From the NCBI GenBank assembly GCA_034520965.1, contig JAXHMY010000007.1, forward strand, positions 128,001-192,000: a stretch of 64,000 bases of DNA, read 5' to 3'. How positions within the stretch are numbered: position 1 is the stretch's first letter; each line of letters opens with the position of its first letter. The stretch is from Spirochaetia bacterium (GTDB lineage Bacteria; Spirochaetota; Spirochaetia; DSM-16054; Sediminispirochaetaceae). Shown here in pieces: positions 42,001 through 54,000 of the stretch. The position numbers were made by a program.

Positions 42001-45000
42001 ATCATGCTCATCTACGCAAGTGAACTGAATGAGAACCCAGAAGGTGAATATACTGCCAGAGATTTTTCCGGTGGTCTTTTATCATGGGACTGAAGAGTGG
42101 AAGCCTTCTCTGCAATCTGCCGATTGTATTGATGCTATTAGTAAAGATCATGTCCCGCATTTTAAGCCGCTTCTGTTCGATTTGAACCGCATTGACGATA
42201 AACAGCTACTCGGATCTGTACAAACGGTGGTGGGCTTGCTATCTTTAAAGTATATCAAGCACCGCTTTACCGAGAGCCTGGTTGCTTATTTGCTGCAGGA
42301 GCTGCATAGGCTTCCGCGTGAGAGCAACTTTTTGCATGAGTTCTATATGACTCTGCTTAAGTTCAAAGCCGAGAAGGAGCTGCAGACCTTTCTGCAGATA
42401 GCCAGAGAGATGAATTACCCGGGACATGGAGGAAGATATAATGACACGCGAACAGAGACTTCTAAAAGATGGACGAATTGAAGCTTTACAGGATTCACTT
42501 AAGAGGCTTATAAAGAAGAAGTTCGGTTTGGAAACAGAGGAATCGGTGAAGATAAACCAGATCAAAGACCCCGCAAAGCTGGAGGCCGCTCTCGATGAGA
42601 TCCTAAGCGCAGAGACTAAGCAGCAGGTGCTGGAGAAGCTGGGGCTTTAGAGCCGGCACGGATGGGGAGGTTATAGAAACTACGGATATATGTGGTGTAT
42701 GCAGGTGGGTCACACAGCTGTGCGCGGATGGGATAATAATTATTATTAAAATTTTAAAGGGAGGCGGCTGTAGAGAGCGGCGCCGCCCGCCAATATATTC
42801 TTTCATCCGTGCATATCCGTAGTTAGTTCCATATCAGTGGTCATCCGCGAATATCTGCGGTTAAATTATATTTCTTATCTTCTTCCATCCGTGTTCATCC
42901 GTAGTTAATTAATTATCTTCCTCATCCGCGGTTGTCGCAGTCGGTTGCATCGTCGTAGTTATTTTTCTACCACACAGGTAAGCCAGGTGATAGCCTCGCG
43001 GCCCAGTCCGTCGCCGGTGGTGGCGCTGCTTATGCTGTGAAAGCCGGCGGATTTGGCCTGGTCGATCCACTCATCGGATGCGAGGAGCAGGTAGTATCGG
43101 CCTTTTTCGTCGTAGCCGCTTTCATCGAGGCCGGGGCGGCTTAAGGGTACGGAGAAGAGGAGTTTTCCGGCTTGCGTTAGCAGCTGGTGGAGGTGTTCGA
43201 AGGTAGGGTGCAGCTGCTCTTGCAAGAGGTGCATGAGGGAGGCGACCGCGTAGATGCCGTTGTAGTGCTCGTGCTCTAAGAGGGCAGCGGGCAGCTCATC
43301 GGGTAGGGCGCCTTGAAAGAGGCGTCCTTCGAGTTGGGGATGGAGGCAAAGGGCTCTGTCGATCATCGCGGGAGCGGGGTCGATGCCCTGGACTTCGTAT
43401 CCCTGCCCACACAGATAGGCTGCTTCCCGGCCGGAGCCGCATCCGATTTCGAGTAGTTGTGCGCCGGGGCTGAAAGTGTCGAGCAGCCGCCGGTGCAGAT
43501 CCGCTACTTCGGCGCGTTCGTAGCGTTGTGATAGTTTTTCTGCGTGCTGTTGGTAGTAGCGGATGGTCGAGTTCTTTTCGTGCTTCATCTTCCGATTCCC
43601 TTACATTATATGGATAGTATAGTTCATTTGCATTATCCGGTGAATCGGCACGAGCGGGGTCTGATTCACTACACATTTGTTTAGTGGAACTTGCGACGTC
43701 GCAAGCTTTTGCCGCGGTGTGGCTTTGTATTTGGGCTGTAATGAGCTAGAATTTCCAAAAAGGAAGTGTATTTGATGTCGATCTGCTCGCTGGCGGCACG
43801 GATGGGGAGGTTATATAAACTACGGATATATTGGGTGTGCGCACGGGGGTAACACGGATGTGCACGGATGGGAAATGGTTGGGAATTGAAGGGATAAAGT
43901 AAATGGCCTATCTATCTCTTTTTATTGTGTATAACCCTAGTATTGGTTTATTCCACACCATATTTTTTAGCCAGTTGCTGAGGGTCTGGTAGTTGGGCAG
44001 GCCGAGTAGTTTGGCGGCCTGACGTTTGTTGCCGCCGGCCTGCTGTAGGGCCCGGGGCAGGTAGTGCTGCATTAGTTCAGTCACCACATTATCAATATTG
44101 AAGTCTTGGTTCAGGGGGCGGTTCAAAAAATGTGGGACGGCTGCGGGAGAATCGGGGGCCGGGTCGGGGCGCACCAGTGATTCTTCGAGGAGGCTGCGGT
44201 TTATTTCGACAGCCGGGCTCCAAAGACAGGCGCGAGTGAGGGTGTTGATCAACTCGCGCACATTCCCGGGCCAGCTGTATTCGCGGATCAGACGCCGGGC
44301 GTCGATTGAAAGCTGCTTGTCTTGCCAGCCTTCAACGCCGGCAAAGCGGGAGTTGAGCTGGCCCAGAAAGTGGTCGGTCAGGGCTTCGATGTCCCGTTTG
44401 CGGCTGTGCAGCGGGGGCAGCTTTAGCACGCCCACGGCTATCCGGTGGAACAGGTCGTTGCGGAAGCTGCCGTCGGCCGACTCGCGGGCCAGGTCGCGGT
44501 TTGTAGCGCTTATTATGCGAAAATCGGAGTGACGGCGGAGGGTGCTGCCGACCCGCTGGAAGGATTGGTCTTGCAGGACCCTCAGCAGAAGGACCTGCAC
44601 ATGCATCGGCAGCTCGCCGATTTCATCCAGAAACAGAGTTCCGCTGTGGGCTTCTTCGATATAGCCGGTTTTATCACTGGCAGCCCCGGTAAAGGCGCCT
44701 TTTACATATCCGAAGAGCTCGGATTCTACCAGGCCCTGGGGCAGGGCGCCGCAGTTGACCGATATAAAGGGGCCGTCCGCCCGGCCGGAGGCGTTGTGGA
44801 TGGCCTTGGCAAACAGCTCCTTGCCGGTGCCGGATTCACCGAGCAGCAGTACGGGCACGTCGAACAGGGCGATGCGACGGGCCCGGTTGACCGTTCTTTG
44901 CATGATTTTGGAGTGATGGATGATTTCGTCAAAGGCCGGGGTGGCCGGGAGCATTTCATCGGGTAAGGCCAGAAGTTTTTCGTCGACCGGGGAGGTGGTA

Positions 45001-51000: not shown

Positions 51001-54000
51001 GCAGGTGGTGTATCAGGTGTATTACAAAGGTCATATGGCCGGTGACTACGTGGCCTATACTGTCAATAATGGACAATAATTTTTAGTTGTTATTTAATGT
51101 AGCATAAAATTTTTTATTTCTATTACAAGTTATTTTATCTATAGGAAAAATCCATCTTGATTTAGCTCACTTACTGTTTCTTATTACCCCAAATTCAACC
51201 CTTATTTTTGGCATGCTTATTGCTAACATAACTGCAGGATTATTTATTAGCCACTGCATTGTTGAATGACTTTCTTAGGTGGCCATCAAAAGGAGCAGTA
51301 AGTATGCAAAAGATTTTATTAGTTCTTGCCTTCGCATCAGTAGTATTGAGCTCATGTGTCTCCTACCGACTCGATCCGGTACCGAACCAGAATATCGAGG
51401 TTCGACATGAGCGGGGCGCAACATATCCCATCTACGAAAGTTCAAAGATAGGAATGGTTGTAGCACCAGAGTTTAGAGAATCGGAGCTGATGGTAAAGGT
51501 GACTGTGAAGAATAACAGCGGCAAAGAGATGTTTATCAGCGATACGGATTTTATAGTCGAAGTGAGCGAGGACAGGCAGAACTGGAACCCGCTTAAAGTG
51601 TATGCATCGGATGAGTACTACGCTAAGGAAAAGCGCGCGTATACCGTTGGGGCGGTGTTGATGGTTATCTCGGCCACCGCCGATACCGCTTCCGCCGGCT
51701 ATGGCAGCAGTACTACCAGCGGAAATGTGTACGGTTCGGGTACCTACGGTTCCTATTCCGGAAGCTACAGCGGCACCACCACTTACTACGATCCGACTGC
51801 AGCTGAATTGGCGGCTCAACGCAATTCCCAGATGGTTTCGCAGTATGCCCAGGAAGGGCAGGGCTGGCTGCAGCTGCTCGAGGACAATCTATTTTATTCG
51901 AAGGACCTACGGCCAAACGAGACCTATTTCGGTTTAGTGTTTGCAGAGAAAGGCTATGGAGATTACTACCGCATCACCTGTACTAATCCTGATTTTGAGA
52001 TTGTACGGATTGAGTATGTAAAGCGGGAGGATAGATAAGTTGCGGGCACTATTTTATAAAAACCTAATGTTGCTGAATCGATTTCAGGAGCATACAATGT
52101 GAAAGGAAGTAAAAATGAAAGTGAAGATATTGAAACATGTAGTATTGCCAATTTTTATTAGCGTTATGTTCATATCATGTACATCAATGGTTGAAAACGG
52201 AACTATGAGTCGTACTCAATCGACACCGGCGTCGACGCCATCAGCTAAGAATAATGCAGTCAGTGAAAAAGATGAGGGCAGCGAAGAACTTCAATCAGCC
52301 CAAGAGCGTATTGCCGAACTCGAGGCAGAGAACAAACAGCTAAAGGAAGAAATAGAGTCGCTCAATCAATCTCCGGAGGTGATGTTTCGAAAAGCGGTAT
52401 CACTTAAGGAGGATGACCCGCAGCAGGCGATGAGGCTGCTAAAGGAAATAACTGTCAAGTTCCCACTTAGTGAGTACAGTGAACCTGCGCAGGAAGAGTT
52501 AGCAGCGTTGGTCAAAACTACTGAAGAAGAACTAAAGCGAGTACTTTCGGAGAAAGAGATTCCTGCCGAAGCAAGGTTACAGACTATTCAAATTACTTTA
52601 GACAGTTATGGAAGCTATCTGAGTGATGAGCTTGTGAGCCGAGCTGAGCAAGAAATAGAGGAGTTGCAAACGGAGATCAAGCGAACTAAATATATCCGTT
52701 CGCGTTATGATGAGATGCAGGAGGTTACTTTTCACTCATCCCGCAGAGATACTTCAACAAGAACTAATCGGGGATACTTTTCAATCGATTTCTATATAGT
52801 CGAGTCGGATAAAACCGACAGTACCTATTTTAGATTCCGTGCGAATTACCGGGGAGAAAGTTGGATTTTTTATAAGAAAATTACTCTGCTGGGGAGTAAC
52901 GGAGTAAAGCTTGAAATCGAGCCCGATGAGTACCGGGAAAAAGAAACCGAGGTTGAGACGGGAGGTGTGCGGGAGTGGTCCGACAGCTACCTTTCCGATT
53001 CCTACAATGACAAAATTCTCGAACTGGCCGAGGCGGAGACTGTTAAGGTGCGATTTGACGGAAAGTATCGCATTGATTTTGAGATGACCGAGAAACAGCG
53101 TGCGGCGCTGAAGGAGATAGTCTCGCTGTATGAACACCTTTCTAAGGGATAGATCAGGATTGAATAGGGCTGATCTTCAAAGAAACAGTTGTTGAAGCGA
53201 CAAATAGATACTAAAATGGAGAAAATCTTGTCGGTATTGAGAATGGCCAATGGACACTTACAATCTTTCATTTACTTTCGGTGGTTTACTGCTTGCCGAA
53301 TCGACGGAAATTGCGCATGCATTCGTACAGACTGAGGACTGGGCAGTGGTGCGACAGAGGGTGATGAATGAAAACATACTACAAAAAACACGAATGCGGA
53401 GCAGAAAACGTTATTACGAAGGCTTATCGAAGAGATTCAAGGCGGCGTACCAATGGGAATTAGAGTATATAGCCAATGCCGAGTTAGAAACGAAAAAAGT
53501 TGTTCTGTTTTTGATTGCGTGTCGTAATTATGAGTTCATTCGTAATTTCTACATTGAGGTGGTGCGAAAAAAGCTGCAGGAGAATGATTTCACCCTGCTT
53601 GAATATGAGTATCATGCTTTTTTTGAGCATAAGCTTGAAGAACACCCGGAACTTAATGCATTGTCCGACAGCAGCAGAAAAAAGATAAGAGAAATTGTGC
53701 TGAAGGTGCATCGAGAGGCCGGAATTATGGATAAAGCAAAAGGCAAAACAAAGCTCCTGTTTCCGCTTGTTCCGCAGGAAATGAGGGAGTTGTATAAAAG
53801 GAACGGCGCGGAGGATGAGTTAGAGATTCTGTTGTTCTAAGTGTGAACGTATAACTGAAGGTAAAAAAGAGGGGCTGAAGTGACGTCTTACAATATTAAT
53901 TTCGAAAACATCTACCACATAGTCAGCAACGAGAAGTTTCTGCGAATGGAAGGTCTGGGGAATGAGGTTCCGTTTTTTATTCAGACCTACGATATAAAGC

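Follow-up and report, generated by a model that had tools for sequence, protein, structure and literature searches.

A CARF-type sigma-54 activator, a WYL membrane protease and predicted envelope genes form a candidate regulon beside BREX in a spirochaete

We analysed a 64,000-nucleotide stretch (the window; positions 128,001 to 192,000 of contig JAXHMY010000007.1) of the genome of a Spirochaetia bacterium (assembly GCA_034520965.1). Positions 43908-53152 hold a block of genes encoding a CARF-AAA+-HTH activator, a WYL-TM-transglutaminase-fold protein, a β-barrel protein, a PrsW-TPR protein, an Rpn-family protein and two lipoproteins, and the block is followed by brxABC (Table 1). The gene and domain content given in an initial annotation of this DNA was confirmed with Pfam and PADLOC. 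Besides BREX, the window contains an SNF2 helicase, CBASS and an AAA_21 ATPase. The block, with a GC content of 59-63% compared to 48% genome-wide, is horizontally acquired, of foreign origin, and lies inside a spirochaete defence island. The Rpn gene, which scores 63.5 bits with NCBIfam TIGR01784 (cut-off 52.1), marks a GC break from 0.63 to 0.49 and is absent from the syntenic locus L147 of a sister genus.

Table 1. Features of the block and its surroundings, with positions counted from the first nucleotide of the window.
Feature	Position	Strand	Basis or sequence
CARF-AAA+-HTH sigma-54 enhancer-binding protein (EBP), 542 aa	43908..45536	-	PADLOC, Pfam, motifs, modelled fold
WYL - Pro-rich linker - one TM helix - EF-hand loop - predicted LapG-like Cys-His-Asp protease domain, 399 aa	45659..46858	-	Pfam, modelled folds
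Predicted sigma-54 promoter, WYL-protease/EBP operon; ATG 27 nt from its first base	46870..46885	-	TGGTACGAAAATTGCA
Predicted sigma-54 promoter, outer-membrane barrel gene	46893..46908	+	TGGCATGGAAATTGCA
Small outer-membrane β-barrel protein, signal peptide, 193 aa	47031..47612	+	Homologue in L090: Pfam OMP_b-brl 1.5e-8
Putative upstream activating dyad, 52 nt before PrsW -24 box	47619..47653	.	ATAAAATATTTTGT-N7-ACAAATTATTTTAT
Predicted sigma-54 promoter, PrsW	47705..47720	+	TGGCACGCTTCTTGCA
PrsW-family intramembrane protease with C-terminal TPR region, 508 aa	47955..49481	+	Pfam PrsW-protease 6.2e-20 (72 bits), TPR_19 4e-4
Rpn-family (Transposase_31/YhgA-like) gene, GC break, outside regulon	49692..50726	+	Pfam 1.5e-45
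Putative upstream activating dyad, second copy, 71 nt before lipoprotein-pair -24 box	51104..51138	.	ATAAAATTTTTTAT-N7-ACAAGTTATTTTAT
Predicted sigma-54 promoter, lipoprotein pair	51209..51224	+	TGGCATGCTTATTGCT
Lipoprotein A, 244 aa, lipobox LSSC	51304..52038	+	
Lipoprotein B, 345 aa, lipobox FISC, coiled coil and C-terminal domain	52115..53152	+	
brxA, brxB, brxC, co-directional, 97 nt after lipoprotein B	53250..58007	+	Pfam, PADLOC

The EBP matches the PADLOC model PDLC01995 (RtcR_PspF2--CARF_AAA_HTH; 7.3e-175, profile positions 4-478 of 481) and Pfam Sigma54_activat (7.7e-66), and its sequence contains GAFTGA, Walker A and Walker B motifs. In the structural model, residues 3-170 adopt a CARF fold (Csm6, 6tug, Z 17.2, rmsd 2.2 over 142 aa), and the closest CARF domain by structure is that of cA6-binding Csm6. 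RtcR is the best NCBIfam match, with an alignment that extends into the CARF part, but an assignment as RtcR was rejected: the score is 326 bits compared to an equivalog cut-off of 650, and rtcB is found on another contig. This agrees with the earlier view of a CARF-type activator other than RtcR.

The neighbouring WYL protein matches Pfam WYL (2.6e-7) and Transglut_core (1.3e-5), the latter in keeping with its first description as transglutaminase-like, which the structural models refine. The WYL domain is structurally closest to those of CapW (Z 11.7), PafBC (Z 11.7) and BrxR (Z 11.1), and a Pfam search revealed no DNA-binding domain. A TM helix is modelled at residues 114-137, an EF-hand loop is located at residues 243-255 (found in 24 of 24 family members), and the C-terminal domain superimposes on LapG (4fgq; Z 9.3, rmsd 3.2 over 131 aa), with catalytic-type residues C288, H320 and D368 that are invariant across the family. 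Judged by its modelled fold, the ‘transglutaminase’ part is a LapG-like cysteine protease with an EF-hand loop, of predicted activity and predicted periplasmic location; the loop suggests that the enzyme is probably calcium dependent. A membrane protein that joins a predicted cytoplasmic WYL sensor to a predicted periplasmic LapG-like protease is previously undescribed.

The envelope genes differ in their distribution. Barrel homologues occur in eight of 35 related loci, and PrsW accompanies the WYL protein in only five of the 35; the PrsW-TPR protein scores 58 bits with the NCBIfam PrsW equivalog, under the cut-off of 225. Lipoprotein A, which matched no Pfam, NCBIfam or PADLOC family, has a homologue in only one of 40 relatives (G001, 73% identity), and the lipoprotein B homologue of G421 (79% over residues 54-344) lies within the same module.

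The strict sigma-54 pattern, TGGYAYN5TTGCW, matches five times in the window compared to 0.23 expected, a count that none of 100 shuffles reached, and 25 times in the 3.35-Mb genome. The four matches reported earlier for the block (46885(-), 46893(+), 47705(+) and 51209(+)) were recovered, but the reported genome count of 32, for which the pattern was not given, was not. The distances to the barrel (138 nt), PrsW (250 nt, or the earlier 256 nt to the second ATG) and lipoprotein A genes (95 nt) also agree. An identical copy of the PrsW promoter 16-mer precedes an RpoS-like sigma gene (C2:522755), near a response-regulator EBP; this copy and the eight full sigma-54 activator genes in the genome argue that the organism uses such promoters. 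A 35-bp AT-rich dyad, ATAAAAT-N21-ATTTTAT, is found genome-wide only at the PrsW and lipoprotein-pair promoters. Half of the dyad is the 15-mer TACAANTTATTTTAT; genome-wide it has only two copies, which lie 66 and 85 nt upstream of their respective -24 boxes, exactly as first noted.

Across 64 non-redundant related loci the strict pattern matches 19 times, compared to 1.3 ± 1.1 (maximum 3) in 30 dinucleotide shuffles. These matches directly precede genes for the WYL protease, the barrel, the EBP, PrsW and a 170-aa lipoprotein family, and barrel homologues follow such promoters in L086, L097 and L091. In seven loci (the window, L071, L072, L073, L074, L046 and L147) the distance between the -24 box and the ATG of the WYL gene is exactly 27 nt. 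This fixed spacing implies a leaderless mRNA; the minus-strand promoter, doubted earlier for being so close to the start codon, is conserved at just this distance. In 16 of 35 related loci no more than 3.5 kb separates the EBP from the WYL protein, in line with the genetic coupling proposed initially, and the coupling occurs in two deep EBP clades.

Locus L147 is arranged like the block, with five promoters: one with CTGC at -12 before the WYL-protease operon, and four strict ones preceding small membrane proteins, a lipoprotein followed by PrsW, and the lipoprotein B homologue. The 16-mer before the latter (at 16226) is identical to the lipoprotein-pair promoter of the window; this locus places the lipoprotein pair in the regulon, against the objection that the Rpn gene intervenes. 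Three of the five L147 promoters have dyad-like 14-mers upstream, the dyad class for this locus being defined post hoc. Taken as sequence evidence, the predicted promoters before envelope genes and their conservation in relatives support a real regulon. The regulon part of the initial interpretation (CARF activator, WYL coupling, conserved promoters) stands, and its transglutaminase and BREX parts are refined; its proposals that the CARF domain senses RNA damage and that PrsW cuts the WYL protein are speculative.

The block apparently activates genes beside BREX that encode outer-membrane proteins, lipoproteins and proteases. On balance we favour a model in which the block acts as a mobile sigma-54 circuit that activates itself and remodels the cell envelope, and that has settled in a defence island. 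In the default state the CARF domain would keep the AAA+ motor off, by analogy with RtcR. Since both CARF and WYL domains sense nucleotides or nucleic acids, a cue of this kind in the cytoplasm is the probable signal. The activator would bind the AT-rich dyads upstream of the sigma-54 promoters and drive four units: its own operon, with the WYL protease as first gene on a putative leaderless mRNA; the small outer-membrane barrel; the PrsW-TPR intramembrane protease; and the two lipoproteins, from which the transcript may continue into brxABC. We hypothesize that the WYL domain would pass the cue sensed by CARF, or another one, through the membrane to the periplasmic protease, inside-out as in LapD-LapG but within a single polypeptide. 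The circuit would serve to remodel the envelope, and may have an anti-phage role.

Several observations count against this model. As reported before, rpoN (PF04552) was not found in the assembly, which is 85.9% complete; the gene is present in 20 of 20 relatives. The HTH_8 match of the EBP (2e-4, 21.4 bits) is slightly below the Pfam cut-off of 22, and no dyad can be recognised at the two back-to-back promoters (46870-46908). The GC content of the lipoprotein genes and BREX is host-like (0.45-0.49), compared to 0.59-0.63 in the core. Regulon content differs from locus to locus, the EBP is nearby in only four of the nine WYL-protease loci that extend 2 kb or more on each side, and a relaxed promoter match is located within 150 nt of the WYL gene in only nine of 31 full-length loci.

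If the promoter and dyad matches were due to chance, the genes would be independently expressed neighbours. The missing rpoN gene would fit this explanation, as would the fact that the promoters are pattern matches only, but it is already disfavoured and highly improbable in view of the excess of matches in the window and, before module genes, in related loci, the identical 16-mer before the lipoprotein B homologue of another genus, the 27-nt spacing fixed in seven loci and the genome-unique dyad at two promoters. We also consider it unlikely that the CARF activator and WYL protein are primarily a transcriptional switch for adjacent defence systems, here BREX, filling the usual place of BrxR upstream of brxA, with the envelope genes as accessory cargo. 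Lipoproteins A and B and brxABC are co-directional, no terminator-like site was found in the 97-nt gap (53152-53250), and the WYL domain is structurally near BrxR and CapW. A sigma-54 promoter in L091 precedes the barrel, EBP, brxA, brxB and brxC genes, all co-directional; HmaA and AbiLi follow the EBP in L042, and a related EBP in L186 faces an OMP barrel, a PLD-like protein, an SNF2 helicase and an SMC-like ATPase. Excerpts of two papers place RtcR-like CARF activators unlinked to Rtc often beside R-M systems (Makarova 2014, PMC4012209) and at the head of defence superoperons (CoCoNuT; Bell 2024, PMC11090510). The L091 and L042 arrangements and these papers also fit the defence setting of the circuit that we favour. 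However, no sigma-54 match lies directly before brxA in the window, the conserved promoters are nearly all before envelope genes, and the WYL protein has no DNA-binding domain by Pfam. A dedicated link is further disfavoured because brxA of L091 has its own sigma-70-like promoter (10-of-12), L090, the close sister of L091, has no BREX, and G421 has the full module and the lipoprotein B promoter but no match to BrxC. The BREX link, initially described as adjacency only, is recurrent (L091) and facultative.

It also seems doubtful to us that the block is a general regulon for envelope stress or surface remodelling (phage-shock-like, or controlling adhesion or biofilm in a Lap-like manner) that has no defence role and shares the island with defence genes only because both are mobile cargo at recombination hot spots. 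Every predicted sigma-54 target is an envelope protein, the module adjoins the housekeeping gene uvrB in L147, the block is flanked by Rpn recombination genes, and the modelled LapG-like fold would indicate surface-protein cleavage; an excerpt of PMC3162934 proposes sigma-54 as a controller of the bacterial exterior. On the other hand, CARF and WYL domains are typical of defence signalling and are coupled here in two deep EBP clades, defence genes lie directly beside the pair in several independent loci, and the annotated loci showed neither large adhesin nor type 1 secretion genes beside the module.

The self-activating envelope circuit that we favour shares with PspF-PspABC a sigma-54 activator of an envelope response, a membrane-bound partner and autoregulation. 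PspF, which lacks a sensor domain, is kept inactive by PspA, whereas this block has a CARF domain and the WYL protease, and no PspA-like gene was found by Pfam. With BrxR, CapW, DriD and PafBC it has in common the WYL fold and the position of a WYL protein upstream of BREX, but this WYL protein lacks an HTH or WCX domain, is membrane-tethered and fused to a predicted periplasmic protease, and would leave DNA binding to the separate sigma-54 activator. The EBP has the architecture of RtcR (N-terminal CARF, central sigma-54 AAA+ with GAFTGA, C-terminal HTH); in contrast to RtcR-RtcBA, its targets would be envelope genes, rtcB is on another contig and the closest CARF domain is that of Csm6. RtcR-like activators near R-M systems and CoCoNuT show the same architecture outside Rtc operons, in defence islands and sometimes co-directional with defence genes (here L091, L042), but the excerpts of PMC4012209 and PMC11090510 describe no WYL membrane partner, envelope regulon or mapped promoters.

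In LapD-LapG, a cytoplasmic nucleotide-type sensor is likewise coupled across the inner membrane to a periplasmic transglutaminase-like Cys-His-Asp protease; the modelled LapG fold and suggested calcium dependence are shared. Here, however, sensor and protease would form one polypeptide, the sensor is a WYL domain and not a degenerate GGDEF-EAL domain, Pfam gives only Transglut_core, and no LapA-like adhesin was seen near the module. PrsW-RsiW-SigW is a regulated intramembrane proteolysis system; the protein described here differs from its PrsW in falling below the equivalog cut-off and in its TPR tail, and resembles it in that a PrsW-family protease is encoded with a single-pass membrane signalling protein.

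The gene layout of the block, established from an ORF listing combined with profile searches, is summarized in the table below; the Pfam and PADLOC profiles bear out the gene and domain content described in the initial annotation. The four core genes have a GC content of 59-63%, against 48% for the genome, and broken Rpn copies lie nearby; we therefore consider the core a foreign block set in a defence island. The Rpn, lipoprotein and BREX genes are at 45-49% GC. The same island also carries a DpdE/ZorD-like SNF2 helicase, a CBASS pair and an AAA_21/HEC-01A ATPase.

Features of the block and its surroundings (window positions)
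Feature	Position	Strand	Remarks
~75-nt repeat, ten copies	between 14230 and 43875	+
Broken Rpn copy	38837-39544		Pfam
Broken Rpn copy	41686-42650		Pfam
Sigma-54 activator gene	45536-43908	-	542 aa; 122-nt gap after WYL gene
Weak sigma-70-like site	45541-45575	-	TTCTTG-18-TATACT; by eye
WYL protein gene	46858-45659	-	399 aa; Pfam WYL 2.6e-7, transglutaminase core 1.3e-5
Back-to-back promoter region	46870-46908
Strict sigma-54 match	46885	-	TGGYAYN5TTGCW
Strict sigma-54 match	46893	+	TGGYAYN5TTGCW
Secreted protein (barrel) gene	47031-47612	+	193 aa
Dyad	47619-47653		ends 52 nt before -24 box
GC-rich terminator-like hairpin	47680-47694		GCCCCGTTGCGGGGC
Strict sigma-54 match	47705	+	TGGYAYN5TTGCW
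~75-nt repeat, one copy	47837-47909	+
PrsW-family protease gene	47955-49481	+	with TPR tail
Rpn/Transposase_31 gene	49692-50726	+
Dyad	51104-51138		ends 71 nt before -24 box
Strict sigma-54 match	51209	+	TGGYAYN5TTGCW
Lipobox protein A gene	51304-52038	+
Lipobox protein B gene	52115-53152	+
brxA, brxB, brxC	53250-58007	+
CBASS pair, pglX and RAMA-domain ORF region	58393-62820		CBASS pair between brxC and pglX: 218-aa cyclase fragment and Cap15-like 2TM effector

The strict sigma-54 pattern occurs five times in the window, where 0.23 matches are expected and none of 100 shuffles reached five, and 25 times in the 3.35-Mb genome. A 15-nt word singled out in the initial annotation is one half of a 35-bp AT-rich dyad, ATAAAAT-N21-ATTTTAT, a candidate operator that is present at exactly two sites in the genome, upstream of the PrsW and lipoprotein promoters; inspection by eye revealed no convincing copy near the back-to-back promoters. 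Downstream of the barrel gene, the terminator-like hairpin separates the dyad from the PrsW -24 box. An Rfam scan of positions 43000-54000 gave no match at E <= 1, hence no known riboswitch is present in the 235-nt PrsW leader. The 16-mer of the PrsW promoter recurs, identical, as a perfect sigma-54 promoter before an RpoS-like gene of the sigma-70 family (C2:521837-522755, on another contig), a few kb from a gene for a response-regulator-type activator (C2:527970-529328), an arrangement that recalls the spirochaetal RpoN-RpoS cascade. As had been pointed out before, rpoN is missing from the assembly, which is 85.9% complete: a search with PF04552 did not find it. All 20 relatives searched have rpoN, and the genome itself encodes eight full sigma-54 activators; in our view its absence reflects a gap in the assembly.

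Related loci display the same promoter class. After removal of four near-duplicates, 64 loci (453,879 bases) contained 19 strict promoter matches, compared with 1.3 +/- 1.1 (maximum 3) in 30 dinucleotide shuffles, and these matches directly precede genes for the WYL protein, the barrel, the activator, PrsW and a 170-aa lipoprotein. The last family is the commonest sigma-54 target in the relatives (L042, L050, L083, L085, L093, L102 and L114) and is absent from the window; it has no Pfam match, and by eye its N-terminal part is PEGA-like and its C-terminal part is hydrophobic and rich in glycine.

A particularly close parallel is found in locus L147 of genome G421, which belongs to another genus of the same family and in which the module adjoins uvrB. 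One strand encodes the activator (54% identity) together with the WYL protein, and four promoters lie on the opposite strand: those at 12017 and 12524 are followed by genes for a 144-aa membrane protein, a 174-aa lipoprotein and a PrsW-TPR protein, that at 15285 by genes for a 92-aa TM-zinc-ribbon protein and a 112-aa TM protein, and that at 16226, with a 16-mer identical to the one at window position 51209, by a gene for a lipoprotein-B homologue. The Rpn gene between PrsW and the lipoproteins had raised doubt about the lipoproteins; no Rpn gene interrupts the L147 module, and since the lipoprotein-B homologue stands there behind the identical 16-mer, the lipoproteins are part of the regulon. 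Dyad-type AT-rich 14-mers are located between the divergent promoters of L147 and 74 nt before promoter 15285, although this motif class was defined post hoc and has 68 plus-strand matches in the whole genome. Homologues of lipoproteins A and B occurred in none of the 114 fetched loci (tblastn, 1e-5), and the genome search found them only in G421 and another relative, G001; in the ESM Atlas, lipoprotein B falls only into unnamed or ‘putative lipoprotein’ clusters (0.91-0.92). PrsW reaches 72 bits with PF13367 (cut-off 23.5) and only 58 of the 225 bits required by the NCBIfam equivalog, and is therefore a divergent member of its family.

The minus-strand promoter had been listed as a weakness, with only 27 nt from the first base of its -24 box to the ATG of the WYL gene. 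The same 27-nt spacing recurs in six other loci (L071, L072, L073, L074, L046 and L147), which turns the objection into a conserved feature. In L043 and L032 the distance is 29-30 nt; in L036 it is 42 nt, and a Shine-Dalgarno sequence is present. The remaining 22 of the 31 full-length loci have no promoter match at a distance of up to 150 nt from the WYL gene. Judged from the GG at -24 and the GC at -12, the predicted first transcribed base is either the A of the ATG or the base preceding it, and the WYL-gene mRNA would thus be leaderless. The weak sigma-70-like site in front of the activator gene ends 8 nt before its ATG, lacks a Shine-Dalgarno sequence and is not among the matches of the consensus scan; a leaderless transcript made constitutively may also serve for translation of the activator.

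The activator matches the PADLOC profile RtcR_PspF2--CARF_AAA_HTH (7.3e-175, profile positions 4-478 of 481). It contains the AAA+ sigma-54 interaction domain of enhancer-binding proteins (Sigma54_activat 7.7e-66; PF00158 221 bits, cut-off 20.2), with the GAFTGA and LFLDEIGE motifs, and in a structure search with the predicted model (mean pLDDT 83) this domain resembles FlrC and FleQ (Z 28-29). At the C-terminus, HTH_8 scores 21.4 bits, just below the cut-off of 22 (E 2e-4), and the homologues in L040 and L038 pass this cut-off. Residues 3-170 of the model adopt a CARF fold, closest to Csm6 (6tug, Z 17.2, rmsd 2.2 over 142 residues) and followed by Csm6’ (Z 15.4), VC1899 (Z 14.5) and Can2 (Z 14.2); with a match to PADLOC CARF4 (4.8e-9), and with relatives that match the Pfam RtcR family (PF06956), the N-terminus is predicted to be a Rossmann-like member of the CARF superfamily. 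We considered whether the protein is RtcR proper, but it scores 326.3 bits with the NCBIfam equivalog NF038308, below the cut-off of 650. The divergent rtcBA arrangement of RtcR is not found either: RtcB is encoded on another contig (C1:781102-782181), and a Pfam search detected neither RtcA nor RtcB in the block, in agreement with the earlier view that this activator is not tied to RtcBA. Cas10, as a source of cOA, had no match above cut-off in the genome, and a CBASS cyclase is encoded 12.9 kb downstream of the start of the activator gene. A predicted complex of activator residues 1-465 with WYL protein residues 1-80 scored 0.00 in a run without controls, a result that speaks neither for nor against an interaction.

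The WYL protein was modelled with AlphaFold from a 24-row alignment (mean pLDDT 76.8). Residues 1-78 form an Sm-like WYL barrel (PF13280 31 bits, cut-off 21.8), which in the model is closest to CapW (7tb6, Z 11.7, rmsd 1.9 over 77 residues), PafBC (Z 11.7) and BrxR (Z 11.1). In BrxR and CapW, wHTH and WCX domains flank the WYL domain, whereas the protein described here has no HTH or WCX match in Pfam; its WYL domain is instead followed by a disordered, Pro-rich linker (residues 79-113), a helix (114-137) that we read as a membrane span, and a protease domain. This domain (residues ~185-399) has a transglutaminase fold, with LapG as best match (4fgq, Z 9.3, rmsd 3.2 over 131 residues), only about 1 Z ahead of CPR-C4 (8.2), PeiP (8.1) and PeiW (7.8); eukaryotic transglutaminases follow at ~7. 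Among Pfam matches at E <= 0.01 there is no LapG-type family, and Transglut_core is found with 25.9 bits (cut-off 23). Residues C288, H320 and D368 show no variation among 24 sequences and are the predicted Cys-His-Asp triad of the transglutaminase core; all 24 family members also share the motif GGDCED[FW]A and a loop with the PROSITE EF-hand pattern, which suggests that the protease domain is calcium-dependent. Because the protein has a single span and no signal peptide, the WYL domain is expected in the cytoplasm and the protease domain in the periplasm. We found no description of a WYL sensor joined through the membrane to a LapG-like protease in the literature searched.

The family is small, with 65 clusters at 90% identity (E <= 0.001), whose members are mostly Spirochaetota according to database records. 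A near-full-length match (residues 32-379) was present in just one (G132) of 400 other Spirochaetota genomes, and the other 26 matching genomes gave only short matches within residues 8-98, the WYL domain. We fetched 40 plus 74 loci and retained the 68 in which tblastn gave a match at E <= 1e-15; in 35 of these the match includes the WYL domain, and the others are truncated at contig ends or are relatives in the protease part only. The related contigs are short, and genes were called as longest ORFs. Within 3.5 kb of the WYL gene, the 35 loci encode a CARF activator in 16 cases, a barrel in eight, PrsW in five, a UvrD/GajB-like helicase in four and the 170-aa lipoprotein in three. Where both flanks of the WYL gene reach at least 2 kb, four of nine loci have the activator. 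The coupling is therefore frequent, not obligatory. In an IQ-TREE phylogeny of 19 activators the WYL-linked genes fall into two deep clades and at least three label changes are needed, which argues that the pairing has been retained or repeatedly formed. The initial annotation had proposed that PrsW cuts the WYL protein; it might do so, but only five of the 35 loci have PrsW near the WYL gene.

The link to BREX, previously based on adjacency alone, is repeated in L091, where a sigma-54 promoter TGGCATGATTCCTGCT (CTGC at -12) is followed by barrel, activator, brxA, brxB and brxC genes, all co-directional, and no terminator-like site is present in the 97-nt gap that separates lipoprotein B from brxA in the window. 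However, brxA of L091 has its own sigma-70-like promoter (10 of 12 positions), the close sister locus L090 has no BREX, and a search for BrxC in G421 gave no match. Of the BREX type 1 set (brxA, brxB, brxC, pglX, pglZ and brxL), the window itself contains BrxA, BrxB and BrxC (PADLOC), and PglZ and BrxL were not seen up to its end; because the pglX ORF is only 611 aa long and a RAMA-domain ORF comes after it, this BREX system may be disrupted. Control of BREX by the module is possible. Also in favour of a link, HmaA and AbiLi follow the activator in L042, and related activators without WYL partner are found beside Cas6b or facing an OMP barrel, behind which lie PLD-like, SNF2 and SMC-like genes. 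Against a dedicated link, further members of the activator clade lie next to genes unrelated to defence, among them an ammonium transporter with P-II and pentose-phosphate enzymes. In support of a link, sections of two published studies place RtcR-like activators beside R-M systems (PMC4012209) and at the head of defence superoperons (PMC11090510). In our judgement the module is a self-contained unit that is often carried in defence islands.

The best-supported part of our model is an activator-dependent sigma-54 regulon with predicted positive autoregulation. Next in confidence comes its predicted output, envelope proteins together with two envelope proteases, and then its input, a nucleotide or nucleic-acid cue that would be read by the CARF domain, with the WYL domain gating the periplasmic protease. 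A more far-reaching reading, which we regard as unlikely, is a two-sensor anti-invader system of the envelope, in which the CARF domain and the membrane-tethered WYL domain both detect nucleic-acid signs of invasion, such as ssDNA or oligonucleotides that arise at the inner membrane upon entry of phage or conjugative DNA. The activator would then trigger a burst of leaderless sigma-54 transcripts, by which new outer-membrane proteins and lipoproteins are installed and, in some genomes, BREX is raised as well, while the WYL domain would concurrently switch on its own LapG-like protease in the periplasm, inside-out, to shed or remodel surface receptors. If true, this would represent a WYL-gated trans-membrane protease and sigma-54 as master switch of a defence island.

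We found no description of the module as a whole in the literature searched (themes CARF/RtcR/sigma-54/WYL, PrsW, LapG and BREX). CARF activators of the RtcR type in defence islands have until now been gene-order predictions only, and the locus supplies testable parts: four promoters, a 35-bp candidate operator dyad and a defined target set. The model, if true, would connect the sensing of nucleic acids in the cytoplasm with cell-surface remodelling, as a defence layer distinct from nucleases and abortive infection, and would provide an example of leaderless mRNAs from sigma-54 promoters. Should a plain envelope-stress reading be true, the locus would still be a new sigma-54 regulon for spirochaetes.

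Further neighbours were observed in the relatives. A ~700-aa protein, with a coiled coil and with a UvrD/GajB-like helicase, is encoded beside the module in L038, L072, L074, L075, L076, L093 and L096. A BrxR-like HTH-WYL-WCX gene lies within 3.5 kb of a gene of the WYL-protein family in L045, L084, L108, L110, L111 and L118; none of these six loci has a CARF activator within that distance, and L045 and L084 encode the full WYL-protease, while the other four match its protease part only. Finally, a ~75-nt repeat has 15 blastn copies in the genome, 11 of which lie in a 34-kb stretch of the contig of the window, all in plus-strand orientation. One copy is located in the PrsW leader, one just past the activator stop codon and two upstream of Rpn genes, and the repeat is also present in the related contig L072.
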